Shown here: piece by piece, positions 29,680-64,000 of the stretch
Layout of the letters: the number at the start of each line of letters is the position of its first letter
Position numbering within the stretch: position 1 is the stretch's first letter
IMG/VR virus record: IMGVR_UViG_3300029305_003176
Direction: 5' to 3' (one strand)
DNA length: 64,000 nucleotides
DNA from: a virus
Position numbers and translations under genes: made by a program
Notes under the pieces: generated by a model
What the model saw: only the letters and a program-made list of their open reading frames with translations
Databases searched by the model: none
What the model was told of the DNA's origin: nothing

Positions 29680-29724
29680 TTTTCATTCCTCTTTTTTCTT
29701 AATATTTCCCTAATGGGATAGTAA

Positions 29725-30018: not shown

Positions 30019-30162
30019 ATATATAAAGACAGAGACGCATCCCTGTCTCTAAAAGCAGCGCCCCGTAGGAACCTCCTGTGCACCGGATAGGTTTCTCACT
30101 AAATATCCAGAATGGTAATTACTCCACCCAAATAAACGTAAGCTTAACCAACTGCCAAACCA

Positions 30163-30234
30163 TAGAAGGTAGGGGAATTGAACCCCTCTTACGAGAATGA
30201 AAATCTCGTGTACTAACCACTATACGAACCTCCC
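30163..30234 (-). tRNA. tRNA-Glu(TTC)
   Basis: Anticodon arm CGAGA-TTTTCAT-TCTCG; T arm AGGGG-TTCAATT-CCCCT. Confidence 0.9.
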
Positions 30235-30249
30235 AAAAATCAAGAGTGG

Positions 30250-31310
30250 ACAAATAAGACCACTCCTTACAAAGCAAAAGCTTTCAATTAAAGATTCAGA
30301 ACACCGTGCGCAACGCTGTCCCTATAGAACTAAAAGTTCTCAATGAATACGGGTGACGATAAGCTAATCCTGTCCGTGTTTTACCCCGTATTAATGTGTA
30401 GTCTCTGCAAAGAAAACACAAATCTAGGACTAAGGTTTTTTCAATAGGGAATTGCAGTTACCTATTGAAGCTATGTAAGTTGCCCACTTAAGGGTTCTTT
30501 TTATACGGCTCGTAAAGAGCAATGTTACAAGGCTCAACCCTTGCTTGCAGTTCTTAACTGCATTTTTTTAACATTCTACTTAAACGTGCCTTTTCACACA
30601 TCATTTGCATATGTTCTTTAGAATGTACAATATCAGTATTTTCGTTAAAAACCTGTTCTGATCTAGTAGCCCATCTCAGGTTAGAAATAGTATTATTATT
30701 TTTATTTCTGTCAATATGATCTACAGTAGGCTTGTTTTCTGGATTTTCTATGAAAGTTTCAGCAATAATCCTATGCAACAATAAAGTTTCCACACGATAA
30801 CTGTCATTACTCAATTTTACTTGATAATAGCCATCTTTTCTTTTTCTTGGACTTAAAAATTTATTTGATATATAACTCCAAATTCGCCCATCCTCGGTTG
30901 CCGCATAACGACCTTCATATCCTTTAATATCCTTCATTTGTTCTCCTTTAAATACAATATCATTTATATAGGAGTGTTCCGTAAAACACCCCTATAATTA
31001 ATTGTAGTCTCAATCCTACATGTAGAAAGTTCCTTTCTATGTTCCCCAGCTTCTCAGTACCAGGTGGTGGACGCATATGTACGCCACTGAAATTTATTCA
31101 GACCGCTATAGAGCAGTAGCGATAGAGTTTTTGATTGGCTTCTCACAAACCAGCTATTTTAACACTCAGTTTATTAATCGGATAGAGTTATTAACCGATG
31201 CTCTTTGTCTGACTTTAATTAAATTCGGTAGATATTATAAACGCCGAATTATATAAGAGCCGTCTTTAGCTATGCATAAGACAGATTCCTTTTCTACACA
31301 TGGTAGATAG
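30250..31310 (-). ncRNA. Candidate large structured RNA (~650 nt) interrupted by an HNH ORF; ends approximate
   Basis: Long-range pairings 31257-31263/30505-30511, 31199-31206/30514-30521 and 31009-31018/30425-30434; many local hairpins; no ORFs in the flanks. Confidence 0.6.
30554..30937 (-). CDS. NUMOD4/HNH homing endonuclease
   Basis: KDIKGYEGRY...GRIWS; LHRIIAETFI.NP...VDHIDRNKNNN...NLRW. Confidence 0.9.
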   Translation of the reverse strand: MKDIKGYEGRYAATEDGRIWSYISNKFLSPRKRKDGYYQVKLSNDSYRVETLLLHRIIAETFIENPENKPTVDHIDRNKNNNTISNLRWATRSEQVFNENTDIVHSKEHMQMMCEKARLSRMLKKCS

Positions 31311-31317
31311 GTTATTT

Positions 31318-31422
31318 ACTATTGAATGATATTATACATTTCAGTCCCGTCATTCTCGGAGACTATACATAACTAACTATCGAGTAATATTCTACATTTA
31401 AATCCCGTTACTCTCGGAGATT
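31318..31422 (-). repeat. Two tandem 47-nt H-type pseudoknot repeats (58-nt period)
   Basis: Copies 31376-31422 and 31318-31364, with compensatory changes in both stems. Confidence 0.85.
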
Positions 31423-31484
31423 AAATAAACGAAAATGTCATAATGACAAAATCTCAGCTCAATCCACACAAGGACGGATGAGTA

Positions 31485-31560
31485 TTGCGGAGAGGTGGAT
31501 TTGAACCACCAACCTTTGCCTTATGAGGGCAACGAGCTAACCGAACTGCTCCATCCCGCT
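31485..31560 (-). tRNA. tRNA-Met(CAT), initiator-like body with irregular acceptor stem
   Basis: AGCGGGATGGAGCAGTTCGGTTAGCTCG; anticodon arm TTGCC-CTCATAA-GGCAA. Confidence 0.8.
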
Positions 31561-50053: not shown

Positions 50054-50125
50054 GGCTCAGTAGTCAAGTGGTTAAGACGCTACATTCTCAGTGTAGAAAC
50101 TCCGGTTCGAATCCGGGCTGAGTCA
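50054..50125 (+). tRNA. tRNA-Glu(CTC)
   Basis: Acceptor GGCTCAG/CTGAGTC; anticodon arm CTACA-TTCTCAG-TGTAG. Confidence 0.9.
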
Positions 50126-50159: not shown

Positions 50160-50375
50160 ATGAAAATTTACCAAGTTGTTGAAATCGTAACACAATACAT
50201 TGATGGATTCGATGGCAACCATGAATGGGAAGAAGAAATTAATAAAGGGCATTATTCCACAATGGAAAATGCTCAGGCAAAACTTAATGCTCTCACAGAA
50301 TTACATTGGGATAGCAAATATAACTGTTGTAGCAGAGAGTTCAAAATAAAAGAAATTGAACTTGATGTAGAATAA
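50160..50375 (+). CDS. Hypothetical protein
   Basis: GGAGG RBS; stop codon lies within a cassette motif. Confidence 0.65.
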   Translation: MKIYQVVEIVTQYIDGFDGNHEWEEEINKGHYSTMENAQAKLNALTELHWDSKYNCCSREFKIKEIELDVE

Positions 50376-50403
50376 AACAATTATTTGATTGGAAAGGCAG
50401 GTA

Positions 50404-50607
50404 ATGATTATGAGAACTTTTATTTTTCCAAACGAATATGTACATCTAATTCAGATTCATAAAAGATATTTGAATAGACTTGAAAAACATATCCGAAAAA
50501 CAATAAATCCAATAAAGAAAAACTCTTATAAAAAAGAGCTAAAACGTTGTAAACAGGCAATTACTTTATTAGAAGAAGAACTTAAGGAAAGATTCATGGA
50601 TATGTAA
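50404..50607 (+). CDS. Hypothetical protein
   Basis: Short basic ORF between cassette motifs; start uncertain. Confidence 0.55.
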   Translation: MIMRTFIFPNEYVHLIQIHKRYLNRLEKHIRKTINPIKKNSYKKELKRCKQAITLLEEELKERFMDM

Positions 50608-50637
50608 ATAAAAACAATATTTGATGGAGGTGTAAAG

Positions 50638-50898
50638 ATGTATATTCCAGAACATTTTTTTAAAGCAGGTGAAGTGCAACGAAAATATGAAATACCGTGT
50701 TATTTTCCTAAAGAATATGCAAAAAAAGTTTTAAAAATGAAGCGAAGAGATATCAAAAAAATTGAAGTGTGCTACAATTTACCAAATATTGTAGACAGCC
50801 AGCCATTAGATATGGCAGATTATGTCCAATGTGACAAAATGTGTATTGTAATGGATAAATACAATGCTTTTCTGTTTCCATTGCAGAGAGTTAAGTAA
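50638..50898 (+). CDS. Hypothetical protein
   Basis: GGAGG RBS. Confidence 0.6.
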   Translation: MYIPEHFFKAGEVQRKYEIPCYFPKEYAKKVLKMKRRDIKKIEVCYNLPNIVDSQPLDMADYVQCDKMCIVMDKYNAFLFPLQRVK

Positions 50899-50932
50899 AT
50901 AAAAACAATTATTTGATTGGAGGTAAAGAAAA

Positions 50933-51265
50933 ATGAAAAGTGAAATGTTAATTAAAATGGTTGATGGTGGATTAGTTAATTATGATGATGATAGTTACAA
51001 GATTGGTGGTTGTCCAACTTGTGATTATGGTAGTTCATACATCACGGAAATTGATATGACTCTTACCAAGCATAAGATTCATATTAAAACAGACAAGATG
51101 TATGATTATGTTCTTTCTGAAGGAGATATGTTGAAATTGCTTTTATCTAATTATAAAGAAATTACAACAATGACTGAAAAGGAATTTGTTGATTGGCTTA
51201 AAGTTAAACTTCTGGAAATCGTAAGCAAAGATGAGTTGGAAAAATACAGTGTTGTTGAACTGTAA
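50933..51265 (+). CDS. Hypothetical protein
   Basis: GCPTCDYGS motif. Confidence 0.65.
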   Translation: MKSEMLIKMVDGGLVNYDDDSYKIGGCPTCDYGSSYITEIDMTLTKHKIHIKTDKMYDYVLSEGDMLKLLLSNYKEITTMTEKEFVDWLKVKLLEIVSKDELEKYSVVEL

Positions 51266-51298
51266 ATAAAAGAAATATTTGATTAGGAGGAAAATAAA

Positions 51299-51739
51299 AT
51301 GGCAGAATTGCATTTAAAAGGTTACTTATGTAACGACTATGACGGAATTATCGCATTGAATAACAAAAATCCAAACGAAAGCGAATATTCACAGTGTAGA
51401 TATGGAGATTCAATTATCAGTAGTATTGAATCTTTTGCTTATGAACACGGAATGTTTGGCGAGCACAAAAAAGGTTTGGGTGGTCGCAAAGCTTTTATTG
51501 ATGATTGCAATTTAAGAGCATATTTTACAACTGAAGAATGTGAACTTGAAGAAGCGATGTTAGCGATGGATGTACTTATGTATGGTGGTGATATCAAAAC
51601 AAGGGTTGATTGGTGTGGATATTCTGAATGGACTATTACTGGATTAGATTTAGAAGAGTTCTCTATTGGTGGACACGACTTAGAAAGCGAATTTAGAAGT
51701 CACTATGGACAGTATTGCCACATTATCATCGAATGCTAA
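51299..51739 (+). CDS. Hypothetical protein
   Basis: GYSEWT...IGGHDL motif. Confidence 0.65.
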   Translation: MAELHLKGYLCNDYDGIIALNNKNPNESEYSQCRYGDSIISSIESFAYEHGMFGEHKKGLGGRKAFIDDCNLRAYFTTEECELEEAMLAMDVLMYGGDIKTRVDWCGYSEWTITGLDLEEFSIGGHDLESEFRSHYGQYCHIIIEC

Positions 51740-51779
51740 TAGTAAAGAAAATAATATTTAATAGATGGAGGTAAAGCAA

Positions 51780-52103
51780 ATGGGATTATTAGGAACCAAT
51801 TTAAATATGAATGATCAAACAAAAACTGTAATTGCAGAAGTAATTGATAAAGAAGATTGCTATGAAATCATATTTGTGTATGGTAATAATGAAGATTTTG
51901 ACGTAGCACAGGCATTTTTATCAAATATGCCGATGCAGTTTAGCAAGGAAGGTATAATTTTTCAATTACAAAAATTTAAATTTTATAGTGATTTCCCTAT
52001 CTATACATGCCAGATTTCTCACAACGGCAATGTCATGAGCAGAGAAGAAGCGTTTGAAAAGATTCTTAATGCAACAGAACCTTGGGAGGGCAATAGTAAA
52101 TAA
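51780..52103 (+). CDS. Hypothetical protein
   Basis: ATG 51780 after GGAGG. Confidence 0.6.
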   Translation: MGLLGTNLNMNDQTKTVIAEVIDKEDCYEIIFVYGNNEDFDVAQAFLSNMPMQFSKEGIIFQLQKFKFYSDFPIYTCQISHNGNVMSREEAFEKILNATEPWEGNSK

Positions 52104-52133
52104 AAACAATATTTGATTAACGGAGGAACGGAA

Positions 52134-52361
52134 ATGACAGCAAGAGAATTTTGTTTAAAGAAAACACAAGTATCTGAATTATGTGTAATAAGAGATACTG
52201 GGTGGATTGTTGCTATTGTATGGATTGACTCAGAAGATTTATTTGCAATGAACGAAACAATTGCAAAGATGGAAGTTAAATCTGATGAATGGGGCACTTT
52301 AAGTATCGTAACAAAACATGGTGACAAGCTTGAAGTTCCTTGTCACTATATTGATTGTTAA
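52134..52361 (+). CDS. Hypothetical protein
   Basis: ATG 52134 after GGAGG. Confidence 0.6.
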   Translation: MTAREFCLKKTQVSELCVIRDTGWIVAIVWIDSEDLFAMNETIAKMEVKSDEWGTLSIVTKHGDKLEVPCHYIDC

Positions 52362-52393
52362 AATAAATCAACATTTTATTAGGAGGTCTAACT

Positions 52394-52594
52394 ATGAAAA
52401 ATCTTTTAATGTTTGTGGCTTGGAATATAACAATAATAATTCTTATATTACTTAATTATGCGACTGTAACTATAGGCGGTGAGACTCTGGGATTAGGAGA
52501 TACGATTATCTATTTTTGCGGTATAGTATTTATTTATTACAATTATAGAAAAATAATAGAAAAGAAAATAATTAAACATAAAATGGAGGTCTAA
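52394..52594 (+). CDS. Small two-TM membrane protein
   Basis: Two hydrophobic segments. Confidence 0.6.
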   Translation: MKNLLMFVAWNITIIILILLNYATVTIGGETLGLGDTIIYFCGIVFIYYNYRKIIEKKIIKHKMEV

Positions 52595-52596
52595 CT

Positions 52597-52806
52597 ATGA
52601 CAGCAAGCGAAGTAGCACAATGGCTTAATTATGAAGCCACAGATGAACAATTTGCCGAAACCTTTGCTCTATTAGAGATAATGAGTTATGGCAGACAAGC
52701 ACCACAAATCTACGACCAAAAGGAAATTATTAAGAGTATGAATATAACTACGGTGTGTCGTAGGCTTAATGAAATTCTAAGCGAAATCAAAACTAATCAA
52801 AATTAA
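52597..52806 (+). CDS. Hypothetical protein
   Basis: GGAGG RBS. Confidence 0.55.
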   Translation: MTASEVAQWLNYEATDEQFAETFALLEIMSYGRQAPQIYDQKEIIKSMNITTVCRRLNEILSEIKTNQN

Positions 52807-52819
52807 AAGGAGGCATATT

Positions 52820-53633
52820 ATGCAAATATTGGTAAGAGAAATGGAAGATGACAAACTAAAATATGTTTGGAAAAAGGTATTCAAGAAAAATATATCAAAA
52901 GATGGCACAATTGTAATTGATAACAAAAGATATTATGACACTGATATTCTTAAAATTAAAGGAGACTTGCGAAATAAATATGTATTTTGTAGGAATTGCG
53001 GTGAATTAATAAAGCCAGAAGATGCAGAAAAGCACTTTGAAAAAAAAAGAAAAAGGAATAGATTGCCTAAATTGTGGTCATTTAACATTCAGACCAACAG
53101 GAAATTATAAGAAACAAAAATATGTAAAAAACGAAGACGGAACATATATGGAAACAATAAGGCAAGAAGTTAATATAATGTGCAATGCATCGTATTATTT
53201 AGAACGTACTGAAAAAATGATAAAAAATAAAAGCCATTACTGTCCACATTTTAAATGCAGATATTCAGGAGTTTCCCAGTTTGCACAAACAATGCTAATG
53301 CAATATCCAAAAATGAATGATATCATTGCAACGGAAAGGAGTTTAATAGAAAACAAGTTTGTTTTCAATAGAATGTTAGATGATTGTAGAATTTACAATC
53401 ATATTAAGATAAAGAATTTAAATGCTTTTGTGGATAGGAATGGAGTGATTAAACATTTTGAGTATATTCACAGAGGTAATGTATATAGATTTATTTATGC
53501 AAAGAAATATGATAAATTCTTTTCGATTTTCAGCATTAAATATAAGTCCTTTAACCTTTATAATTATATAAGTGACACAACGATTGAAAATATCCAAAAA
53601 GCAGTAAGAGCAGTTTATAAGGAGGAAGCTTAA
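52820..53633 (+). pseudogene. Cys-containing protein split by a frameshift in an A9 tract
   Basis: A9 at 53040-53048; A8 would fuse 52820-53110 and 53022-53633 (...KHFEKKEKGIDCLNC...). Confidence 0.7.
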
Positions 53634-55037
53634 ATGGTAAAGTTTAGTGAATTAAAAGAAAAATGGGCGTTTTGTTATACAGAAAGCCAATTATTAGACC
53701 TAATAAATGAAATGTATGAATTATGTATGTATTACGGGCATAGTGCTACAAAGTACGGTATCATGTGTGTGCTTGATAAATTCATTGATAATAAAAAGGA
53801 AAAGATTGAGCTACTTATGAAACACTCAGGGTACAACGGAAATCTACAAGTAGTTACCGTAAAGGAATTTGTTAGAGACACTTCGGCAAGCGAAATATCT
53901 AACTTTGTCTATAAATTCCCCGACAAGATCAAATCAAAGAATAAGATAATTAAGAAAAATATTAATGGCGAAACTCTTGTAGATATTATCAAAAAGGAAA
54001 TGACAAATATAAAAGTACTCAAGATTTCCGATATTGATAAGGTTAAAAATGATGTAAAGGTTAGTGGCAAATTCAATGATTATGGCGAAGTAAAAGAAAG
54101 TGTAATAATTCACTCAAAATATTTAAATGCTAACGACATATTTCGTTTCGAACATAAATCTACATTAAGTGAATTGGCTGCAAGGAATTTAAATGATTAT
54201 GTGCCAGAGCTTAAGGTTGTAAAAGATATGAAAACATCGAGAGCTTTTGGTAAGTTGTGTAATTACTTTAAACTAAACGAAGCACCAAATTACAATAAAT
54301 TATACGCAGAATACTGTGATTTGGTAAGTGTATTAACGAGAAAGCTAAACTTTGTTATTTCTCTTAATCCATTAGATTACTTAAAAATGAGTTTTGGTGT
54401 TAATTGGGCAAGTTGCCACACAATCGACATACATAATAAAAGACGTATGCCAGATAGTTATTCAGGTGGATATTGCGGTGGCACACTATCTTATATGTTA
54501 GATAAAAATTCCTTTGTAACATATGTTGTTCCAATCGAAGAGAAAAATGGTATTACATCAACACAAAGACCAGACAGATGGGATAAGATATATAGAAATA
54601 TGTTCCATTTGCAAGGGCAACAACTTATTCAGGGCAGAATTTACCCACAAGGCAAAGATGGTGCAACAGATTTATACAAGGTAATGCGTTTTAATATGCA
54701 AGAAGCTCTGTGTGAAATGTGGGGTATTAATTATATTGATAGCGGTAACGGAAATGATACTTGGGTGTCAAGAGGAAGCACAAAAGATAATACTTCTTGG
54801 TATAACACATTAGGATGTAACTATCAAGATTATAGATATTTTCGAGATTGTAATTTATCTAAGGTAAGAAACTCCGACAATGACTTGCCAATAGAAATTG
54901 GACACGAACAAATAGATGTATTCTGTGGCGAATCACTTTCGGGCTGTTCTGGTAAAATATCGCTTGGCGAAAGAAAAGCGGATTTACCAGATATGATTGC
55001 AGAAAAAACAAATTATACTACATATATTCCAAACTAA
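53634..55037 (+). CDS. Conserved phage enzyme-like protein, paralog 1
   Basis: NPLDYLKMSFGVNWASCHTID...GTLSYMLD...RNMFH...IQGRIYPQG. Confidence 0.7.
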   Translation: MVKFSELKEKWAFCYTESQLLDLINEMYELCMYYGHSATKYGIMCVLDKFIDNKKEKIELLMKHSGYNGNLQVVTVKEFVRDTSASEISNFVYKFPDKIKSKNKIIKKNINGETLVDIIKKEMTNIKVLKISDIDKVKNDVKVSGKFNDYGEVKESVIIHSKYLNANDIFRFEHKSTLSELAARNLNDYVPELKVVKDMKTSRAFGKLCNYFKLNEAPNYNKLYAEYCDLVSVLTRKLNFVISLNPLDYLKMSFGVNWASCHTIDIHNKRRMPDSYSGGYCGGTLSYMLDKNSFVTYVVPIEEKNGITSTQRPDRWDKIYRNMFHLQGQQLIQGRIYPQGKDGATDLYKVMRFNMQEALCEMWGINYIDSGNGNDTWVSRGSTKDNTSWYNTLGCNYQDYRYFRDCNLSKVRNSDNDLPIEIGHEQIDVFCGESLSGCSGKISLGERKADLPDMIAEKTNYTTYIPN

Positions 55038-55047
55038 ATAAAATTAA

Positions 55048-56877
55048 ATGGAGGATGATATTATGATAATGGAAAAGAACGCAACTTACGAACTCTCACA
55101 AGAAGAAAGAGAATCGTTACGAAAGGAAATTATTGATCTTACAAGAGAATATCATTACAACCCAACAGAAAGTGCTGTTGATAAGTTACTTGATGAATGG
55201 GTAAAGAATAATGGCTGGATGATTAATTTGTTTAAGAAACATCCAAATTATAATGGAAAGTATCAGATTGTATTTGACGCAAACTATCTACGAACAACTA
55301 ACATAAATGAAATAAGGAATTTCTGCAATTGGATAATGTTTTATTGTTGCGAAGTGTTAGTACCAATGAAAATAAGTACATTCTCGTATATAGAAGTGTG
55401 TGACCATAGAAGTCGTGTTAAAGATATTTGTGACTATATGGAATTTTTAAAATCATATGGGAAAAGTGTGGTTGTTGATGGAATGAGTCTTAGAGAATGG
55501 AGAAATGAGCTTAATAAATGGATCGCACTTAAGAAAAGATATGAATCTGAAACTTATATTTATGATGTTAGGGCATATACTGTAGAAAGTGGTAAAAAGA
55601 AAAAAGCTTTAGATGATCTTGCAAGAGTATTATATGACTATTATGACAATGTGATAACAGAAGAGATTGCGGAAAGAGTAAACAATATTTATCAAGATAT
55701 AAAGGCTGTTGCAGGACAGAAAACTTCAAAGCTTATGAGAAAGATATGTAAAAAACTTGATATAGATAAAGTTGTAAATTTTGAAAGAGAATTTGCAAAG
55801 TATGCAGATAGTATTAATCCAATAGAACTTACACGAAAAACAGTTCTTTCTTGTCATCCTGTTGATTTCTTAACAATGAGCTTCGGAAATAGCTGGGCAA
55901 GCTGTCATACAATTGATAAGCGAAACGATAGAGGTATGCCAGATTCATACGAAGGGCAATATAGCTCAGGTACAATTTCTTATATGCTTGATGATACATC
56001 ATTTGTGTATTACACAATAGATAAAGATTACAATGGAAATCAGCCAGAGTTGCAGCCAAAGATTAATAGAAATATGTTTCATATTGGCGAAGATAAATTA
56101 ATACAAGGTAGAATTTATCCTCAAGGAAACGATGGAGATGACGGATTATATAAGCAAGTAAGAGAAATCGTACAAAAGGTAATTGCTGACTGCCTTGAAG
56201 TTCCTAATATGTGGAAAAATGTAAAGGGAACCAATGAATGTAGAAATATGACATCTAGCAAGGGAACTCATTATAGAGATTATACTTCTTTTTCAAGTTG
56301 TAATGTATCTTATTTAAAGGATACAGATGGGAATATTAACACTATTTATATCACAGTGGGACACGATCCAATTTGTATACAATGTGGACGAACTCATAAC
56401 TGGTCGGATGCTATTGAATGTAGTAGTTGCTACGATGGTATTTTTATTTGTGCAGATTGTGGTTGCGAAGTAGATGAAGAAGATGTGATAGAAATAAATG
56501 GCGAATACTACTGTAGAGATTGTTGTAGTTACTGCGACTATCATGAGCAATATGAAAGAGAAGAACTTACATATGTAAATAATTATGGCTATGTATGCGA
56601 TAGTGGTTTGGATAATGATGATTTTGATTATTGTGAGAGATGCGAGCAATGGTTTTATGATAATGAAGAGGGTTTTAGCACAGCAGACGGATTATGGTAC
56701 TGTTGTGAAGAACATGTAAGAAATGACGGCTATGAAATGACAGAAGATGGCGAATGGTACCCAGAAGATGAGGTGCATTATTGTGAGATTTGCAAGAGAT
56801 ATGTTCACGAAGATAACTGGAATGAAGATGAAGATTGTTGTAACGATTGTGCAACAGAAGAAAGAGAGGCGATTTAG
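55048..56877 (+). CDS. Conserved phage enzyme-like protein, paralog 2, with C-terminal CxxC repeats
   Basis: HPVDFLTMSFGNSWASCHTID...GTISYMLD...RNMFH...IQGRIYPQG; about 9 CxxC pairs in an acidic tail. Confidence 0.7.
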   Translation: MEDDIMIMEKNATYELSQEERESLRKEIIDLTREYHYNPTESAVDKLLDEWVKNNGWMINLFKKHPNYNGKYQIVFDANYLRTTNINEIRNFCNWIMFYCCEVLVPMKISTFSYIEVCDHRSRVKDICDYMEFLKSYGKSVVVDGMSLREWRNELNKWIALKKRYESETYIYDVRAYTVESGKKKKALDDLARVLYDYYDNVITEEIAERVNNIYQDIKAVAGQKTSKLMRKICKKLDIDKVVNFEREFAKYADSINPIELTRKTVLSCHPVDFLTMSFGNSWASCHTIDKRNDRGMPDSYEGQYSSGTISYMLDDTSFVYYTIDKDYNGNQPELQPKINRNMFHIGEDKLIQGRIYPQGNDGDDGLYKQVREIVQKVIADCLEVPNMWKNVKGTNECRNMTSSKGTHYRDYTSFSSCNVSYLKDTDGNINTIYITVGHDPICIQCGRTHNWSDAIECSSCYDGIFICADCGCEVDEEDVIEINGEYYCRDCCSYCDYHEQYEREELTYVNNYGYVCDSGLDNDDFDYCERCEQWFYDNEEGFSTADGLWYCCEEHVRNDGYEMTEDGEWYPEDEVHYCEICKRYVHEDNWNEDEDCCNDCATEEREAI

Positions 56878-56878
56878 T

Positions 56879-57949
56879 ATGAGCAAGAAAACTAAACAAA
56901 ATTATATAAGTGCATTTAATACAAAGAAATATACATACAAGGGAAAGAAAAATAAAACAATATTTCCAGAATTTATTAGTATATGCAAAAAGACACAAGC
57001 AGAGCTTAAGTTTGATTTAGTTACTAAACTAACAGAAGCAGGCTATCCCGAAGTTATTTGTGCTGATGGATATGTTTATGCAAAGGGAGAATTACCTATC
57101 TTATTAACAGCTCATTTAGATACAGTTCATGATAATCCGGTAAAGGATTTTTATGAATTTGTAGATAAAAATGGAAGTCATATCTTAAGTTCGCCACAAG
57201 GTATAGGTGGAGATGATAGATGTGGTGTATATATGATACTTGAAATTATTAAGAATTATAAGCCATCAATTCTTTTCTGCGAAGATGAAGAAACAGGAGG
57301 GCAAGGTTCAAAAAAATTTACTAAAACTGAATTCATTAATGATTTATCAGATTTAAAGTATCTTATTGAACTTGACCGAGCAAATGCAAATGACGCAGTA
57401 TTCTACGATTGCGATAATCCTGAATTTACTAAGTTCATAGAAGAAACAACTGGTTTTAAAAAGTCATTTGGTAGTTTTTCTGATATATCAGTGCTTGCGC
57501 CTGCTTGTAAAGTTGCAGCAGTAAACCTTAGTTGTGGTTATTATCACGCTCATACACTCCGAGAAGAAGTAAACATGGAAGAAATGTTTAATACAATCTC
57601 CGCCGTTAAAAAGCTTCTCGAAACAGAAAGTGAACAATATGAATACATTGAAAAGAAATATAGTTATATAGATTGGGGTGTTTATGGAAGATATGGACTT
57701 GTAGACTATGACGACTATGGCTGGGGTAGCTATGGCGGTTATAGTGGTAGCAGTGGAAACTATTTTGAAGGTGAATTAAAAGAAGAATATGAATGTGTTG
57801 TAATGTATGTAACATTCAATAGAAACGAAAAAGAGGACTATGACGAAGTTTATGGTTATACAAAAGAAGAATGTTGGGCAGATTTCTTTATGGGTAATCC
57901 AGATATTTGTTATAACGATGTTTTAGATTATTATTTCGATGTGTTCTAA
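56879..57949 (+). CDS. M20/M28-family zinc peptidase
   Basis: AHLDTVH, GGDDRCG, DEETGG, ELDR, GSFSDI, NLSCGYYHAHT motifs; ATG 56879. Confidence 0.85.
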   Translation: MSKKTKQNYISAFNTKKYTYKGKKNKTIFPEFISICKKTQAELKFDLVTKLTEAGYPEVICADGYVYAKGELPILLTAHLDTVHDNPVKDFYEFVDKNGSHILSSPQGIGGDDRCGVYMILEIIKNYKPSILFCEDEETGGQGSKKFTKTEFINDLSDLKYLIELDRANANDAVFYDCDNPEFTKFIEETTGFKKSFGSFSDISVLAPACKVAAVNLSCGYYHAHTLREEVNMEEMFNTISAVKKLLETESEQYEYIEKKYSYIDWGVYGRYGLVDYDDYGWGSYGGYSGSSGNYFEGELKEEYECVVMYVTFNRNEKEDYDEVYGYTKEECWADFFMGNPDICYNDVLDYYFDVF

Positions 57950-57982
57950 AAATAAAGAAAAGACAGTTTTTGAACCAAGATG

Positions 57983-58079
57983 AAAATTTGTTGTTAGTAA
58001 TTTAGATAATTTTGGTAAAACCGTATTCATAACCCAAGAAAAAGCAGAACAAGCATTGGCAGAGATGAAAGGAGAATAG
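57983..58079 (+). pseudogene. C-terminal gene remnant
   Basis: ...DNFGKTVFITQEKAEQALAEMKGE* (common phage C-terminal motif) preceded by an in-frame TGA and no start. Confidence 0.5.
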
Positions 58080-58082
58080 TTT

Positions 58083-58334
58083 ATGTGCAAATATTGTGAA
58101 GAAAATGAATCAATTTTCTATGATGAAAAATCAAAGGGGATAAGAGAAGTTGTTGTCGAACAGGATAACACTCTTTGTATTTGCAGCAATGATTACGACC
58201 AAGATGATGCGAATGAATCTGAAGCGATAGGATTTAGTTTTTATGAAGCTAAACTTATGGCGCAATATAGCATTTCATTACCAATAAATTACTGCCCTAT
58301 GTGTGGCAAGGCATTAAAGCAGATAGGAGATTGA
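58083..58334 (+). CDS. Small Zn-finger protein
   Basis: MCKYC...INYCPMCGKAL. Confidence 0.7.
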   Translation: MCKYCEENESIFYDEKSKGIREVVVEQDNTLCICSNDYDQDDANESEAIGFSFYEAKLMAQYSISLPINYCPMCGKALKQIGD

Positions 58335-58338
58335 GAGG

Positions 58339-58533
58339 ATGAAATGGAACGCAAGTGTAACAATGACATTGAACATTGATTATGAAGATATTGAAGCAGA
58401 TACAGAGGAAGAAGCAAAGAGAATAGCTGAAGATATGGCTTATGAAGATGTAGATTTCAATAATTGTATGTGTGATGATGATGCAACAGCATTTGTTTGG
58501 TTAGCAAAGGAGAATGAGCATGACGGAGAATGA
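58339..58533 (+). CDS. Small acidic protein
   Basis: IEADTEEEAKRIA motif. Confidence 0.6.
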   Translation: MKWNASVTMTLNIDYEDIEADTEEEAKRIAEDMAYEDVDFNNCMCDDDATAFVWLAKENEHDGE

Positions 58534-58885
58534 AGCGATTAACGAATTACAAGCAAATATTGACTTGCCTTTTGGATTTACTGTATCGGATGAAGTATCA
58601 GCAATGGCAATCCAAGCCCTTGAAGAAATCCAACGGTACAGAGCAATCGGAACTATTGAAGAATTTAAGGCTTTGAAAGAGAAGAGTGTGGCGAAGAAAG
58701 TAATTGCACCCCCTTGTAATGCTTGTGATAAAGAATTATGCGATTATGATTGCAAGTATTTTTTAACTACATATACGGATGAATATAAATGCCCTACTTG
58801 CCACACTAATCAAGTGTACATACCTGAATACGAAATAAGACTTGATTGTTGTCCTAATTGCGGACAGAAACTTGATTGGCAATGA
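58514..58885 (+). CDS. Zn-finger phage protein
   Basis: YRAIGTIEE; CPTC...CPNCGQKLDW. Confidence 0.7.
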   Translation: MSMTENEAINELQANIDLPFGFTVSDEVSAMAIQALEEIQRYRAIGTIEEFKALKEKSVAKKVIAPPCNACDKELCDYDCKYFLTTYTDEYKCPTCHTNQVYIPEYEIRLDCCPNCGQKLDWQ

Positions 58886-58896
58886 AAGGAGAAGAT

Positions 58897-59088
58897 ATGG
58901 GAAGTTTAGCAGATTTATGTGCAAGTGAAGTAATTACCCAAAAAATTGATAAAGCCTATGAAGAAGGATATAACAAGGCTATTGATGAAATGGTAGATGG
59001 CATAAGAGAGATATTAGAGTGCAATGCAATATACAACATTGATTGTATTTCAACATTAGCAGAGCAGATGAAAGGCGGTGCGGAATGA
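58897..59088 (+). CDS. Hypothetical protein
   Basis: GYNKAIDE motif. Confidence 0.6.
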   Translation: MGSLADLCASEVITQKIDKAYEEGYNKAIDEMVDGIREILECNAIYNIDCISTLAEQMKGGAE

Positions 59089-59369
59089 GTAAAGTTATAG
59101 CAATAATAGATAGACCTAAAAATTGTCAAGAGTGCGTGTTTGGGATTTGTAAATACTCATTGCCATTATCTACTCACAGAAAAGCATACTATTGTCAATT
59201 AAAAGAACCAAAAGGTAGAGTTGCAGAAGATTTTGATTATGACGAAGAAGTACATTTGAGTAATTGTCCTCTGAAAGAATTACCACAGAAACAAGAAGAT
59301 TTACCAACTAACATCTATCGTGAAGGTTGGAATGCCTGCATAGATAAGATTTTGAAAGGAAGTGATTAA
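59085..59369 (+). CDS. Small Cys-rich phage protein (paralog 2)
   Basis: IAIIDRPKNC...CPLKELP...GWNACID. Confidence 0.65.
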   Translation: MSKVIAIIDRPKNCQECVFGICKYSLPLSTHRKAYYCQLKEPKGRVAEDFDYDEEVHLSNCPLKELPQKQEDLPTNIYREGWNACIDKILKGSD

Positions 59370-59657
59370 ATGAGATTGATAGATGCAGATGCTTGGGTTA
59401 AGGAATTTGACGAAGTAATAACAAAAATAGAAGAATCAAATAATAAAGAACCTATTAGCAAAGAAGATTTTATTAAACTTCTCAAAATTATAAGAGGAGG
59501 TGTTGAAGAACAGCCAACAGCCTACAATGTGGATGCAGTAGTGAAAGAGTTGGAAGATATAAAAAATGCACCAAAGCGAGATTGTCCTTATAACACAGGA
59601 TGGAAGAGTAGTGTTGAATGTGCAATCGAGATAGTAATAAAGGGTGGTGTGGAATGA
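59370..59657 (+). CDS. Hypothetical phage protein (MRLIDAD family)
   Basis: MRLIDAD...QPTAYNVDAVV. Confidence 0.7.
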   Translation: MRLIDADAWVKEFDEVITKIEESNNKEPISKEDFIKLLKIIRGGVEEQPTAYNVDAVVKELEDIKNAPKRDCPYNTGWKSSVECAIEIVIKGGVE

Positions 59658-59968
59658 AACTAATAATTGACATACCGACAGAGTTTGAAACTGACTACAA
59701 CGGCGATAAATTCAAAGACTTCTTTTCAAGAGTTCAATGTGATATAGAAAATGGAACGTTATGTAGTAATTATGAGAAAGAAACCGCAGAAATGTTTTTG
59801 AAAGCATTTGATGAAAGCGTACCTATGGCTGATATCGTGGAGAAGTTGGAAGAAGAAAAAGGCAAAGTCGTTATTGATGGAAAAGAAATGTATCAAGAAA
59901 ATTATTTTATTGATATTGATGATGCCATCAACATAGTAAAGCAGGAGATTAACAATGGATTGGAGTGA
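59654..59968 (+). CDS. Hypothetical phage protein
   Basis: MKLIIDIP...DKFKDFFSRV. Confidence 0.65.
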   Translation: MKLIIDIPTEFETDYNGDKFKDFFSRVQCDIENGTLCSNYEKETAEMFLKAFDESVPMADIVEKLEEEKGKVVIDGKEMYQENYFIDIDDAINIVKQEINNGLE

Positions 59969-59972
59969 TACC

Positions 59973-60221
59973 GTGAGCAGATTAAGAGAATTAGTTAAAT
60001 GGTTTTATGAGAAGTTTCCGAGTGGTGGTTTTTTACACATTGTTTTAGATGATGGGAATTTTGAAACAAGACACATTGTATGGTGCTTATTACATTGGAA
60101 AGATAATTTATCCCAAGAAGAAATTGAATGGGTAGAAAATAACGAAAACGAAATAAGAGAAATGTGTACTTTACTTTTAGAACTTAAAGAAAAGGATAGG
60201 TACAAGATTTGGAAGGAGTGA
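59973..60221 (+). CDS. Hypothetical phage protein
   Basis: GGFLHIVLDDGN motif; GTG start after GGAGTG. Confidence 0.65.
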   Translation: MSRLRELVKWFYEKFPSGGFLHIVLDDGNFETRHIVWCLLHWKDNLSQEEIEWVENNENEIREMCTLLLELKEKDRYKIWKE

Positions 60222-60225
60222 TACC

Positions 60226-60384
60226 GTGTTTTTATTGTTGGCATTAGTATTTATGGTTTTAAGTTGGATTTTTGCGTTAAAATGCGACAAGTTTAATATC
60301 AAGAAAGACATTGTATGGTTTGTATTGGCAATCTTATTCGGATTTTTAGATGTTTTATTTTGTACATTACATTTTATTTTGTAA
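60226..60384 (+). CDS. Small two-TM membrane protein (52 aa, not in ORF track)
   Basis: GTG start after AGGAG; two hydrophobic helices. Confidence 0.55.
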   Translation: MFLLLALVFMVLSWIFALKCDKFNIKKDIVWFVLAILFGFLDVLFCTLHFIL

Positions 60385-60396
60385 AGGAGTGATACC

Positions 60397-60675
60397 GTGA
60401 AAGCGATTTTGGTTTTAGATGAAATGCCGAGTAGTTGTAAGGAATGTAACTTGCAACAATTTTATATATGCAAACCGGTAGGAAAATCCGTTGTAGGAAC
60501 ACCAACAGACTTGAAAAGTAAACCCGATTGGTGTCCGTTAAAGCCGATGCCGAAAGAGAAGGAACTTAAAAATATTAAGCGTGGATATAATACATATAGT
60601 AATACTGAATTTTGGGAAGCAGTAGGCTACAACGCTTGCATTGATGAAATTTTAGGAGGTTCGGAAAGTGAGTAA
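60397..60675 (+). CDS. Small Cys-rich phage protein (paralog 3)
   Basis: AILVLDEMPSSC...KPDWCPL...GYNACID. Confidence 0.65.
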   Translation: MKAILVLDEMPSSCKECNLQQFYICKPVGKSVVGTPTDLKSKPDWCPLKPMPKEKELKNIKRGYNTYSNTEFWEAVGYNACIDEILGGSESE

Positions 60676-60994
60676 ATTTGATTATAACCATTTCTATGGT
60701 GGATATGATTCTTTTGCAGTGTCAAAAGAGAAATTCACAAAAGAAGAAGCGATAGAAATTGCCAAGGTTGAAATGGAAACAGTTTATTTGAATAAACCTT
60801 ACTATCTTTGCATTAGTGACGGATTTGTAAGACACAGAGCAGGAATAAACGAAGATAACGAACCTTGCGTTGGTTGGTGGATTGAATATCAAGAACATAA
60901 AAGAAGTTGTCCTTGTTGGGTATTCCATTTATCAAAATTAGAGGATGAAGAAACATTCTTTGGAGATAAGTACGAAAGAATATTGATTGAATGA
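60668..60994 (+). CDS. Hypothetical phage protein
   Basis: Coupled ORF, 108 aa. Confidence 0.6.
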   Translation: MSKFDYNHFYGGYDSFAVSKEKFTKEEAIEIAKVEMETVYLNKPYYLCISDGFVRHRAGINEDNEPCVGWWIEYQEHKRSCPCWVFHLSKLEDEETFFGDKYERILIE

Positions 60995-61030
60995 TGATAA
61001 TTGATGAAATGTTAGGAGATAAGGAGTGAA

Positions 61031-61219
61031 TTGCAAATGAATGATTTCAATATAACAATTGGAGATGTAACTGCTAATACAAGTATGATCGAAGAAGATG
61101 TTATAAGAAGCAGACTTGGATTAGAACCTAAAAAACAAGAGTATCAACATCAAGAAAGTCCAAAAGAAGACTATTTTGAATGTAGAAACAGTTATCTTGA
61201 TGGAACATGGTGTTGCTAG
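61031..61219 (+). CDS. Hypothetical protein
   Basis: AGGAG RBS. Confidence 0.55.
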   Translation: MQMNDFNITIGDVTANTSMIEEDVIRSRLGLEPKKQEYQHQESPKEDYFECRNSYLDGTWCC

Positions 61220-61268
61220 AAGGTAACAACCAAACCCGCATTTTATTAAGAGAAAAGGAGAACAAACA

Positions 61269-61592
61269 ATGAAAAGATATTTGCTTAATGTAACATTTTA
61301 CGCAGGAAGTAATGATATAGAAGATACAGACCGAGATTTGTTTTTACTCTGTATTGATAAAGAAATTAGTGAAAAAGAAATGACTGAGATTTTTAGAACT
61401 GTCAATAAACTTCTTGACTATTTTGACGATGAAGAAAAAGATTTTCCTATTTCTTATGAGCAAGGATTAAATATCAATACTCTTATGGAAGGCATCGGAA
61501 TTTATACAAAGGGAGAAGTTAAAGAAGTGTATAGTAATTTTGGTCATTTGCAAGAGATTGACAATTATTATGTGATTGAACAGTGGCAGTAA
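61269..61592 (+). CDS. Hypothetical protein
   Basis: AGGAG RBS. Confidence 0.6.
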   Translation: MKRYLLNVTFYAGSNDIEDTDRDLFLLCIDKEISEKEMTEIFRTVNKLLDYFDDEEKDFPISYEQGLNINTLMEGIGIYTKGEVKEVYSNFGHLQEIDNYYVIEQWQ

Positions 61593-61605
61593 ATGGAGGT
61601 AAAAG

Positions 61606-61833
61606 ATGTATTTAATATATAAGAGAAAAGACGGTACGATTGAAGATTGTGTATACAGAGGAGGTTGCGGTGGAATTGAAGTTGCTACTGGAGGCGATTT
61701 CAGAAAAGGATATATTACATTTCCAAAAGAAAAGTTTGAAGAGTTGTTTATGTCTGGTGCAATTAAAGTGTTAAAACATAAACCAAAAGAGGATTTATGC
61801 GATTATTTGAAACACTTAAAAGCAAATGACTAG
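61606..61833 (+). CDS. Hypothetical protein
   Basis: GGAGG RBS. Confidence 0.6.
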   Translation: MYLIYKRKDGTIEDCVYRGGCGGIEVATGGDFRKGYITFPKEKFEELFMSGAIKVLKHKPKEDLCDYLKHLKAND

Positions 61834-61887
61834 TTCAATTACAAAAATAAATAAAATCCATGTTTGATTATGAAAGGAGCTTGAATT

Positions 61888-62292
61888 ATGGTAACACTAG
61901 AACAGTTGGTCAAAAAACAAAAATGGAATGAAATGAGTGATATTCAAATCATTAAAGAATTCTTCGACTTAAATAATTTAGAAGAAGAAGGAATGGATTT
62001 GATACACGAATTAACAAGAACTAAAATTGAAAAAATGAAACAAAAACATCGAACGTCGGAAGAATGGGTTTGTATGTTACCATCCAAATATCTGTATGAA
62101 AATTACGACTTAGATATTGCAGACAGACTTCATACTCTTGAACTTAATTATCTTGTAAATGGTGGAAAACTTTCTAAAGGTCATCTGAAATGGGCAACAG
62201 AAAACATTCCTAACATTGTAAGACCTCAAGCATATTTTAACCCACTTGTAGAATGGTTAGAAAATGAGGGAATTAGATTTAAAGCAAGATAA
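61888..62292 (+). CDS. Hypothetical protein
   Basis: Bounded by cassette motifs. Confidence 0.6.
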   Translation: MVTLEQLVKKQKWNEMSDIQIIKEFFDLNNLEEEGMDLIHELTRTKIEKMKQKHRTSEEWVCMLPSKYLYENYDLDIADRLHTLELNYLVNGGKLSKGHLKWATENIPNIVRPQAYFNPLVEWLENEGIRFKAR

Positions 62293-62324
62293 AATTCGTG
62301 TTTGATTAGGAGGTAAGCATAATT

Positions 62325-62786
62325 ATGAAATTAAAAGATTATGAAAAATTCGATGAATATGCAAGAGAGGTTATGAACTACTTTCGTGAGTTAAAAAAGG
62401 AAAGGGAATTAACCAGAGAAGAAGAACGGTTAATGCTTCATTCTTTAACAATGAGAACAATTGCTCATTCTGCTCAATCTAAACATATGGATAAGCAGGA
62501 AGCAGTAAGACAGAGCAACAGAGAAAAGCAAAGAGATGCATTATTTGCTAGTTCTAAAATTGTATATGAAGGGTTTGTTGATGATATCTATGAGCCAGTA
62601 TATGCTTCAGATTACAAGGAACTTCGCAAAAAAATGTCTAAATACGCAAATCTTTATCCGAAAGAAAAAGATATGGCAACTGTGAATACTTATGAGAATG
62701 GAGAACTAATTAAAAAGGAAATATGGGTCAGAGAAAACACATTATGTAATGAAATATGGTCTTTTGGGAAATGGGATATTTCTTAA
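62325..62786 (+). CDS. Hypothetical protein
   Basis: AGGAGG RBS. Confidence 0.6.
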   Translation: MKLKDYEKFDEYAREVMNYFRELKKERELTREEERLMLHSLTMRTIAHSAQSKHMDKQEAVRQSNREKQRDALFASSKIVYEGFVDDIYEPVYASDYKELRKKMSKYANLYPKEKDMATVNTYENGELIKKEIWVRENTLCNEIWSFGKWDIS

Positions 62787-62802
62787 TACAGGAGGTAATT
62801 AT

Positions 62803-63015
62803 ATGAAGATTGTTAAAGTTAAGGAATTTCGAAATGATATGTCTGCTTTACCGTGCCCGTTTTGTGGAGAAACAGAAGAAATTTACTTTGAAGAATATGA
62901 AACTAAAGTAGGCGAGAGGTGGCGTATTGTATGTGCTAAATGCATGGCTAATATTGATAGAGGATATGACCAAACACCGCATCCATTAGTGGAATTGTGG
63001 AACAAGAGAAAATAA
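62803..63015 (+). CDS. Lar-family restriction alleviation-like Zn-finger protein
   Basis: LPCPFCG...CAKC...WNKR; ATG 62803 after AGGAGG. Confidence 0.7.
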   Translation: MKIVKVKEFRNDMSALPCPFCGETEEIYFEEYETKVGERWRIVCAKCMANIDRGYDQTPHPLVELWNKRK

Positions 63016-63043
63016 AATTTGTATTTGATATGGAGGTAAAACA

Positions 63044-63280
63044 ATGGGTATTAAAAGAAAAATCGAATTAACTTTCTACAGTTTGTTTTCTATTGTAACT
63101 TTTCACAAATATTATATTTGTGAAGATTGTCACAAGATTCATAAGCGAACCGGAAATGAATTTGAAGTATGTGGTGGATGGTATAAACCACATGTATTTG
63201 TGTCATATAAATGTGCAAATGAAGTAATTAGTAACAGTAGAAAACTTTTACGTGACGCAGCATTAAAAAGATGGAAATAA
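63044..63280 (+). CDS. Hypothetical protein
   Basis: Bounded by cassette motifs; CEDC. Confidence 0.6.
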   Translation: MGIKRKIELTFYSLFSIVTFHKYYICEDCHKIHKRTGNEFEVCGGWYKPHVFVSYKCANEVISNSRKLLRDAALKRWK

Positions 63281-63308
63281 AAATTATATTTGATGGAGGC
63301 AAAATACA

Positions 63309-64000
63309 ATGTTAGAGATATATCTACAAGAAACTGATTATGAACATGGAAATGATTGTTTAATACAGAATTGTTATACAATTCTCAAATGTCATGATAA
63401 ATACATCACAATGAATATCAGAAGATATAAAGGCTGGTGCGACAATGGTATGCCGGTAGTAGTAACAAACAATACTACAACTAACGATCCAATTCTTAAT
63501 CAGATTATTGAGGATGGATATGTAAGAAATACAAAGCTACATAGAAGATGGGTTATGGCACAAATGTTCCACATGCTTGATTACGAAAGTTACAAGAAAG
63601 ACGGGCACGGTCGTTATAATAGAACAGAAACTGGTTATGACGCTTGCCTGAGAAATAATTACGGATATATGTATCAATTCGATATGATGCTTGAGGAAAT
63701 TCGTATTCTTAGCAAGTTAGAAGATAGAGATATGGAGAGTTTCAATGAGAGAAGCCATTTCTTTACAAAGAATGTTGTCGTTGATACTTGTACTGATTAT
63801 TTAAAGAATCTTCAAATATATGTTGATAGCCTTAAAGAATATAAGTGCAAGGGAGTTCCTTATAAGAAGGTAAAAGGAAAAAATATCTTTGTATCTGATT
63901 TATATAAGAAATTATATTATCCAATTAATATGTCAATTAATCGAATTGGAAGAACAAAGAACTATAAAGAATTATATAGAGAACTTAGAATTTTCAATCG
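63309..64000 (+). CDS. Conserved phage protein (partial, runs off window)
   Basis: ATG 63309 after GGAGG; DGYVRNTKLHRRWVMAQMF. Confidence 0.65.
   Translation, partial: MLEIYLQETDYEHGNDCLIQNCYTILKCHDKYITMNIRRYKGWCDNGMPVVVTNNTTTNDPILNQIIEDGYVRNTKLHRRWVMAQMFHMLDYESYKKDGHGRYNRTETGYDACLRNNYGYMYQFDMMLEEIRILSKLEDRDMESFNERSHFFTKNVVVDTCTDYLKNLQIYVDSLKEYKCKGVPYKKVKGKNIFVSDLYKKLYYPINMSINRIGRTKNYKELYRELRIFN

Follow-up and report, generated by a model that had tools for sequence, protein, structure and literature searches.

Motif sites and gene arrays in the window

The stretch analysed here, 64,000 nucleotides of viral DNA from IMG/VR record IMGVR_UViG_3300029305_003176 and referred to below as the window, contains two arrays of small open reading frames (ORFs) punctuated by a short motif, ATAAAA-N6-TTTGAT, in which a left and a right arm enclose a variable centre, or core, of six bases. 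Both arrays are parts of long early operons, and between them lies a block without the motif. The features of the region are listed here by window position; G006, G007 and G008 are the related phage genomes compared further below.

50054..50125, plus strand: tRNA-Glu(CTC), directly upstream of array 1
50160..52361, plus strand: array 1, seven small ORFs of 71, 67, 86, 110, 146, 107 and 75 amino acids (aa)
50372..50389, plus strand: site ATAAAA-CAATTA-TTTGAT; the TAA of the arm is the stop of the ORF at 50160-50375
50608..50625, plus strand: site ATAAAA-ACAATA-TTTGAT; core repeated at 52100, and in G007 it comes after CAATTA
50899..50917, plus strand: variant ATAAAA-ACAATTA-TTTGAT with a 7-nt core (N7)
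51266..51283, plus strand: site ATAAAA-GAAATA-TTTGAT
51745..51762, plus strand: weak, degenerate site AAGAAA-ATAATA-TTTAAT; no matching core found in the relatives
52100..52117, plus strand: site ATAAAA-ACAATA-TTTGAT, second copy of the 50608 core, with four ORFs between the two
52362..52379, plus strand: degenerate site AATAAA-TCAACA-TTTTAT, left edge of the site-free block
52394..61219, plus strand: site-free block of 8.8 kb with about 22 ORFs, a single slot between CCAACA-like and CCCGCA sites
61229..61246, plus strand: degenerate site ACCAAA-CCCGCA-TTTTAT with worn arms
61269..63280, plus strand: array 2, six small ORFs of 107, 75, 134, 153, 70 and 78 aa
61851..61868, plus strand: site ATAAAA-TCCATG-TTTGAT; 18-mer identical in G006, core present in G007, flanks unrelated
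62289..62306, plus strand: site ATAAAA-TTCGTG-TTTGAT; the TAA of the arm is the stop of the ORF at 61888-62292
63012..63029, plus strand: site ATAAAA-TTTGTA-TTTGAT; the TAA of the arm is the stop of the Lar-like ORF; core present in G006 and G007
63277..63294, plus strand: site ATAAAA-ATTATA-TTTGAT; the TAA of the arm is the stop of the ORF at 63044-63280; core present in G007 and G008

Eight exact matches to ATAAAA-N6-TTTGAT occur in the window, exclusively on the plus strand, against a chance level of 0.21 on average and 2 at most in dinucleotide-preserving shuffles; these are the eight copies reported in the original prediction, recovered at the same coordinates. The palindromic form ATMAAA-N6-TTTKAT reveals no extra site elsewhere in the 64 kb, and the interval from 52.4 to 61.2 kb is free of sites, as had been claimed. 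A constant layout is maintained along the arrays, running from stop codon to site to ribosome-binding site to ATG. The stop of the upstream ORF is the TAA inside the ATAAAA arm at four sites, with TAA immediately 5' of the site at three more, while GGAGG follows TTTGAT after 0-4 nt at six sites and is replaced by GGAAAGG or AAAGGAG, 1-5 nt past TTTGAT, at sites 50372 and 61851. The earlier description of sites that overlap or follow a stop codon and precede a ribosome-binding site is therefore accurate, and the array sites are real, non-chance elements. Among the four variants originally proposed, those at 50899, 61229 and 52363 (start 52362 in the list above) look real, and the one at 51745 is weak and without outside support. 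Five of the six core bases at 52362 agree with the CCAACA site of G007 and G008, which occupies the same place in the order, and the CCCGCA core at 61229 is exactly that of full sites at the corresponding place in G006 and G008. The 18-mer of site 50372 recurs identically at the head of the G007 array, and that of site 62289 is identical in G006 and G007, where the flanks are unrelated.

Each ORF of array 1 has its own ribosome-binding site, and none has a Pfam match, a paralogue or a homologue in G006-G008. Only one ORF between sites matches any family, the Lar-like 70-aa ORF of array 2 at 62803-63015 (PF14354, 37.4 bits against a cut-off of 28.6). The units consist of one or two mutually unrelated ORFs each, as first described, with no paralogy found among the between-site ORFs; paralogy of the cassettes as a source of the repeat was rejected for that reason. 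The suggestion of a mainly anti-host cargo is not supported, no ORF between sites other than the Lar-like one having a family match. Inside the arrays no enrichment of sigma-70-type promoters and no intrinsic terminators were found, with none at the sites.

Site centres and their neighbours in related phages

A pattern scan of IMG/VR for the motif followed by a ribosome-binding site gave matches on many contigs of 105-140 kb, and scans of whole records found 4-17 strand-biased motif copies per record versus 0-2 for a control pattern. The informative records are the window, G006 (131 kb, complete, with terminal repeats), G007 and G008. Their cores follow a common order, CAATTA, ACAATA, GAGACA, ACCTTA, CCAACA, CCCGCA, TCCATG, TCCATA, TTCGTG, TTTGTA, ATTATA, GTTTCA, TTCTAC ... 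TGAAAG, of which each of the four phages has a subset. The window and G007 have six distinct cores in common (CAATTA, ACAATA, TCCATG, TTCGTG, TTTGTA and ATTATA, representing seven window sites since ACAATA occurs twice) where 0.07 are expected (P ~2e-12). The window and G006 have four in common (expected 0.03, P ~4e-8), and G007 and G008 six (expected 0.08, P ~3e-10), with the common cores collinear in every pair compared.

The genes between these cores are not conserved. Slot ORFs of the window have no BLASTP match at 1e-4 among the slot ORFs of G006, G007 or G008, and backbone proteins are 42-51% identical, including the recombinase described below (51%), a DndB-like protein (42%) and an M28 peptidase (46%). 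Across 22 pairs of sites with the same core, identity rises from 0.31 over the 30 nt upstream to 0.83 in the arms and drops to 0.35-0.38 downstream, so that the 18-mer forms an island of identity with sharp edges. A core that differs from its neighbours and is nevertheless kept at its place across distant phages indicates a position-specific constraint. Exchange between equal positions accounts for this constraint; promoter, operator or RNA-signal functions do not. In a closer trio of relatives, G001-G003, the genes next to a given site vary, with two or three alternatives after it or different ones before it. The original prediction proposed that breakpoints of gene gain and loss in relatives would fall in the 6-bp core; the breaks do lie at the motif, but with arms shared by every site the exact crossover cannot be assigned to the core.

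Insertions in these genomes leave recognizable footprints. A single TTTGTA site stands ahead of a 62-aa gene in G007, and the homologue of that gene in G006 (79% identity) is preceded by an inserted 69-aa ORF bracketed by a TTTGTA site and a worn TTTGTG copy. A 67-aa ORF of G007 is bracketed by TCCATG and TCCATA where the window and G006 have a single TCCATG, and in the window four ORFs are bracketed by the two ACAATA sites. Bracketed insertions of this kind are the expected outcome of a single exchange that inserts a circular piece carrying one site.

The anatomy of the sites was derived from 67 junction sites in the four phages. Left arms are ATAAAA (40), ATAGAA (7), ATCAAA (6) or ACCAAA (4), and right arms TTTGAT (34), TTTTAT (11) or TTTGGT (9), with both ATCAAA-N6-TTTGAT and ATAAAA-N6-TTTTAT present. 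Because ATCAAA pairs with TTTGAT, and ATAAAA with TTTTAT, the half-site can be written A-ATMAAA and forms a DNA palindrome, the usual asymmetry of the arms arising because ATAAAA alone contains a TAA stop codon. The proposal of inverted arms around a variable 6-bp core is thereby borne out, and the palindromic half-sites favour a dimeric DNA-binding protein over an RNA signal.

The phage itself can be placed by its backbone. The minus-strand half of the window encodes a portal protein, a large terminase and PhoH, the terminase being 44% identical to YonF of Bacillus phage SPbeta and relatives. A metagenome contig, L001, obtained by exact-protein look-up in JGI samples, shares 4604 identical bases with the window and extends 9.3 kb further, adding in order a third, looser array, a 328-aa tyrosine recombinase, a DndB-like protein and an MrpR homologue (27% identity to SPbeta MrpR, E 8e-13). 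SPbeta has the matching family order yopP, yopQ, yopR. The terminase and this family order identify the phage as an SPbeta-like temperate phage of a Firmicute. A megablast of 50-64 kb against GenBank phages gave no match, and the sequencing runs containing this stretch are recorded as feces metagenomes.

Sites of the same kind occur in cultured phages of the SPbeta group, where TAAAA-N6-TTTTA is present 34 times in SPbeta, 30 times in phi3T and 31 times in Goe14, compared with 2 per genome for a control pattern and a shuffle mean of 1.7. The SPbeta logo, TYTRAATAAAA-N6-TTTTATTYARA, comprises 11-bp inverted arms around 6 bp, a dif-type layout, and at least nine SPbeta sites supply an annotated TAA stop (yoqG, yoqS, yoqY, yorT, mtbP, yorZ, yosC, yosF, yosR). 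Some sites of the group lie between convergent or opposite-strand genes or upstream of promoters. Between SPbeta and phi3T, 22 cores are common, with both flanks alike at 8, one alike at 8 and neither at 6; the remaining two pairs of the group give 6/7/11 and 5/4/10 for both, one and neither. At the islands, identity is limited to the 16-mer, the outer arm bases already differing. Counted per pair, 7, 10 and 9 ends of megablast segments are no more than 20 nt from a site, versus 0.7-0.9 expected and a maximum of 6 in 2000 trials. No description of TAAAA-N6-TTTTA sites was found in the SPbeta literature covered, which did not include the genome paper of Lazarevic et al. 1999.

Two further comparisons in this group were given no weight. 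The reverse-complemented centre pair TGATAA (SPbeta) and TTATCA (phi3T) is of a kind expected about 0.4 times by chance, and a control listing of isolated common 15-mers was left aside because chance matches and other AT-rich repeats overwhelmed it. A further AT-rich repeat, AGAATAAAAATAAAATTA, recurs between TAAAA-N6-TTTTA sites and the next ribosome-binding site at many places in SPbeta (for example 132766, 120659 and 90637) and in phi3T.

Laboratory hybrids of SPbeta and phi3Ts offer a further comparison. Dragos et al. list 17 unique junctions from evolved hybrids and extrachromosomal DNA, of which 15 have 400 to 19,760 bp of homology (bioRxiv 10.1101/2020.05.06.055103, Suppl. Table 1). Junction 7 has 30 bp of homology with the phi3Ts fragment ending at 62446, and the single 'non-homologous' junction, N1, is placed at B. 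subtilis position 2170033 (bioRxiv 10.1101/2020.05.06.055103). At junction 7, phi3Ts 62417-62446 is the site TCTAAATAAAA-TGCATA-TTTTAAACAGA, and its SPbeta counterpart at 69424-69439 is an island with both flanks unrelated. N1 maps to SPbeta 116417-116423, inside a TATTCC site at 116415-116430, on prophage coordinates calibrated on junctions 4, 8 and 7 and good to about 6 nt; its phi3Ts end falls on an ATAAAA at a stop codon, 15 nt upstream of the phi3Ts TATTCC site. Sites make up about 0.7% of the genome in total, and each of the two junctions with minimal or absent homology touches one, an overlap noticed after the hypothesis was formed.

Proposed recombination joints and alternative explanations

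The favoured reading, to which a probability of roughly 0.6 is assigned, is that the 18-bp sites are DNA-level recombination joints that split the early operons of accessory genes in SPbeta-like phages into ordered slots. That they are recombination joints of some kind is more probable still, and a regulatory or RNA role fits the data less well. When related phages or prophages meet, exchange within a pair of sites with matching centres would replace the intervening genes, and a single exchange with a circular piece would insert a gene and duplicate the site. With the left arm supplying or following the TAA stop and the right arm abutting the next ribosome-binding site, the resident operon would ensure expression of an incoming ORF that lacks a promoter.

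As to the enzyme, a tyrosine recombinase is the most economical proposal because it accounts for both the common inverted arms and the matching centres, and catalysis by such a protein is a plausible, tentative extension at somewhat under even odds. We infer that the enzyme would bind the arms and need identical centres, and the best candidate is the Xer-like 328-aa protein encoded beside the DndB-like and MrpR-like genes (L001:10934-11917, 7 kb downstream of array 2; PF00589, 101 bits). Its best matches are XerA, XerH and XerD, and aligning it with XerA and with the G008 homologue shows the catalytic R, K, HxxR, H and Y at the expected places. A tyrosine recombinase outside the window had been anticipated, and this one, with its catalytic set intact, answers to that description. 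G003, G005 and G006 encode homologues 3-11 kb downstream of their arrays, and G008 has one as well (51% identity). In SPbeta, YopP has an XerC-superfamily domain and YopQ is ParB-like, with no function assigned to either (Brady et al., PMC8612738). Catalysis by this particular phage enzyme is rather doubtful, and host Xer proteins or another phage protein are possible alternatives. A wider proposal, which we consider somewhat unlikely, is that SPbeta-like phages including SPbeta itself have a dedicated cassette-exchange system, in which about 15-35 dif-like sites per genome would each have a unique 6-bp address and a tyrosine recombinase at the YopP position would recombine sites of equal address, permitting trade slot by slot between co-infecting phages and prophages; the DndB/ParB-like neighbour might help the recombinase, gene order would stay unscrambled and expression would be immediate, the stop codon being part of the site. 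If true, these phages would carry an ordered equivalent of integrons and dif modules.

Several observations weigh against the recombination reading or its enzymatic form. Only about 7 bp of each arm are conserved in the window clade, which is short for a tyrosine recombinase, and the contact of the right arm with the ribosome-binding site and of the left arm with the stop codon would fit an expression role too. Breaks among G001-G003 are not at one nucleotide, one falling inside GATAAAAT and several past GGAGG, and a single-gene indel in this trio has a full site at one end only. A core-matching recombinase could delete the 1.5 kb between the two ACAATA sites of the window. About 85% of megablast segment ends in the SPbeta group lie away from sites, making the sites one exchange route among several, and the phi3Ts end of N1 lies off its TATTCC site, so that this junction is not a clean site-by-site join. 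Concerning the enzyme, the window-phage recombinase has no BLASTP similarity to SPbeta YopP, YopP has a Lys at the expected Arg II position (in an alignment of 17% identity), and G004 and G010 carry sites and have no recombinase homologue at 1e-5. The connection between any recombinase and the sites is one that we infer.

The strongest competing explanation, judged unlikely, is that the sites are linker or boundary sequences kept for expression, at which RecA or phage annealing proteins use short homology or a site-specific nick or break stimulates repair from a relative, with no strand-exchange enzyme dedicated to them. It is compatible with the locking of sites to stop codons and ribosome-binding sites, with the spread of G001-G003 breaks across the arm and ribosome-binding site, with the long homology at most laboratory junctions, and with an SPbeta annotation that includes a Sak4-like annealing protein and a RecJ-like exonuclease. 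However, islands of 16-18 bp with sharp edges are very short for efficient homologous exchange, plain homology leaves the common inverted arms and the 11-6-11 palindrome of SPbeta unexplained, and the needs of expression would not keep a distinct 6-bp centre at each position when backbone identity has fallen to 42-51%.

The same position-specific centres bear on the possibility, considered improbable, that the sites are an array of operators bound by a dimeric regulator of the early operon (MrpR-like, DndB/ParB-like or other), with breaks coinciding because the sites are intergenic. Palindromic half-sites suit a dimeric binder, the phage encodes the MrpR homologue described above, and SPbeta has a repeated operator, SPBRE, often abutting the ribosome-binding site and bound by the recombinase-fold repressor MrpR (PMC10516654). 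Operators, however, need conserved arms and not a centre specific to each position across distant phages. SPBRE (ATACA-N7-TGTAT) differs in sequence, and chromatin affinity precipitation sequencing (ChAP-seq) of SPbeta MrpR gives ten peaks, all at SPBRE promoters and none at the 34 TAAAA-N6-TTTTA sites (PMC10516654). The arrays have no promoters to repress, duplicated sites around insertions go unexplained, and a better operator candidate in the window is a 15-bp palindrome, GTTTNGTAACNAAAC, in the promoter region. The idea that the motif is the counterpart of SPBRE, with which it agrees at 14 of 21 bases in a by-eye alignment, was dropped: its centres are position-specific, and both the ChAP-seq results and the separate palindrome speak against it. 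An RNA-level signal, whether a processing site or a translation coupling or enhancer element in polycistronic early mRNA, is very improbable: orientation strictly follows transcription, the motif always stands between a stop codon and a ribosome-binding site and the sequence is AU-rich, but the arms covary as a DNA palindrome (ATCAAA/TTTGAT, ATAAAA/TTTTAT), the hairpin of 5-6 A-U pairs plus a mismatch, as read from the sequence, is not expected to be stable, sites of the SPbeta group also lie between convergent or opposite-strand genes and in part upstream of promoters, and position-specific centres would have no reason to exist.

In the large temperate phages of Firmicutes, small genes without assigned function stand in long runs; many of them are thought to act in counter-defence, and their turnover is fast. 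Address-coded joints, if the recombination reading is true, would offer a concrete mechanism for ordered gene swapping and a possible function for the orphan recombinase conserved beside the SPbeta master repressor. They would also explain the short-homology and 'non-homologous' junctions of the SPbeta x phi3T laboratory hybrids and would provide a simple rule for locating exchangeable accessory slots in metagenomic phages. SPbeta and phi3T have sites of this kind too, which makes the idea directly testable in Bacillus subtilis, and the sites could serve phage engineering as landing pads.

Comparison with known systems and further observations

The layout of inverted arms around a 6-8-bp overlap, typical of tyrosine-recombinase core sites, is found here, and the matching centres at exchanged positions appear to fit the rule that overlaps must match. 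The pdif modules of Acinetobacter plasmids likewise have many short arm-6-bp-arm sites between accessory modules that are shuffled among related replicons (PMC6449649, PMC13141974, PMC9947245). The SPbeta-group sites share this 11-6-11, 28-bp layout, while only about 7 bp per arm are conserved in the window clade, and the candidate enzyme is Xer-like. In contrast, pdif mimics host dif, with distinct XerC and XerD arms and modules bounded by sites in opposite orientation, whereas the sites here are symmetric-armed and co-oriented, each with its own centre in a fixed order, and they form part of a phage operon, with the site also acting as a stop codon. Their symmetric arms also appear unlike those of Bacillus dif.

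Integrons resemble the arrays in their promoterless, co-oriented single-gene units with read-through expression, in a tyrosine recombinase gene near the array, in insertion that duplicates the site, and in a stop codon that can lie in the site. Part of the original interpretation stands, the breakpoint comparison being positive and a recombinase lying outside the window, but the integron label is not supported. Sites of 18-19 bp with 6-7-bp arms are not attC-like, attC being an imperfect palindrome of 57-141 bp (R''-L''...L'-R') recombined as a folded single strand. No attI or Pc was found, nor an IntI, although the recombinase was not examined for the IntI-specific insert; there is no promoter enrichment at the array heads, a tRNA precedes array 1 and the recombinase gene is 7 kb downstream. 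At attI an integron can take up cassettes in any order, whereas the centres here fix the slots. The sites are related in working to those of integrons and dif modules and are members of neither family.

Short conserved sequences at gene borders in lambdoid phages, the boundary or linker sequences associated with the modular theory of Susskind and Botstein and with Clark et al. from 2001, have reportedly been proposed to guide module exchange. They are loosely conserved patches without an arm-centre-arm structure and are not known to be ordered or address-coded. The PeSL elements of T4-type phages are also repeated intergenic elements that flank small ORFs of unassigned function in variable regions and mark insertions, deletions and replacements between related phages (PMC2839356, PMC4122927). 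They differ in being longer, in containing a promoter and a terminator hairpin, and in acting by homologous recombination among near-identical copies (PMC2839356, PMC4122927), features replaced here by individual centres without promoter or hairpin.

SPBRE belongs to the same phage family and is a short palindromic repeat often beside a ribosome-binding site, present at ten SPbeta early promoters and bound by MrpR (YopR), a protein of tyrosine-recombinase fold reported to have lost recombinase function (PMC10516654). As derived from NC_001884 it reads AAATACAAAWAATATGTATAWA and abuts the ribosome-binding site in several cases. It differs from the present sites in having about ten promoter copies with one common sequence, ATACA-N7-TGTAT, and a regulatory role, the sites here lying in promoterless operons. 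Several TAAAA-N6-TTTTA sites of SPbeta lie about 10-90 nt from SPBRE (NC_001884 76171-76215, 99498-99600 and 129270-129312), upstream of aimR, yorE and yosX.

The 8.8-kb block between the arrays corresponds to a single 157-aa ORF in the same slot of G008, and large genes of the type found in the block are placed just ahead of the CCCGCA site in G006. Two adjacent large proteins of the block, of 467 aa (53634-55037) and 604 aa (55063-56877), are paralogous at 30% identity; neither has a family match, and a search of IMG/VR for related loci with the 604-aa protein gave no confirmed match. One 755-aa relative of the pair is encoded in G006, and an M28-peptidase-like ORF (PF04389, 25.5 bits) follows the pair in the window. 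The late region at 29724-31559 carries tRNA-Asp, tRNA-Gly, tRNA-Glu and tRNA-Met.

Beyond the window, the third, looser array spans L001 7669-9780 (window-equivalent 67065-69176), its junctions including ATAGAA-ACACAA-TTTGAT, ATAAAA-TAATGA-TTTTAA and ATAAAT-ACACAA-TTTCAA, with HicA-like and DUF8033 ORFs just upstream. Exact look-ups of two cassette proteins returned the same phage population only. A strain variant, L150 (JGI 3300018475), equals window 59813-63451 and then diverges inside a 325-aa gene, the break not being at a site; a GTTTCA site (ATAAAAGTTTCATTTGAT) lies about 250 nt beyond this break, and the GTTTCA core, absent from the window, follows ATTATA in G007 and G008. Contigs from four DNA runs compared with window 46-64 kb gave only weak joints (shorter side 21-36 nt), none at a site. 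A scan of genome contigs for ATAAAATTCGTRTTTGAT gave 83 matches, all chance-like, with none in an array and six followed by a sequence resembling a ribosome-binding site.

Two other repeats were noted in the window. The palindrome GTTTNGTAACNAAAC gives 23 strand-hits versus 5.2 expected, with about nine copies (46021, 46048, 46804, 46859, 47176, 47700, 48331, 48854 and 57015) mostly in the promoter-rich start of the early region, and may be the operator of a repressor, MrpR-like or other. The second, AACTAATYAAAATTA, occurs nine times versus 0.11 expected, at 32482(-), 37561(-), 38240(-), 43989(-), 45541(-), 46064(+), 49136(+), 52791(+) and 56890(+), co-oriented with genes on both strands and often just before the ribosome-binding site. 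A promoter specific to the phage, or a regulatory box, is a possible function, and similar boxes precede genes of G007.

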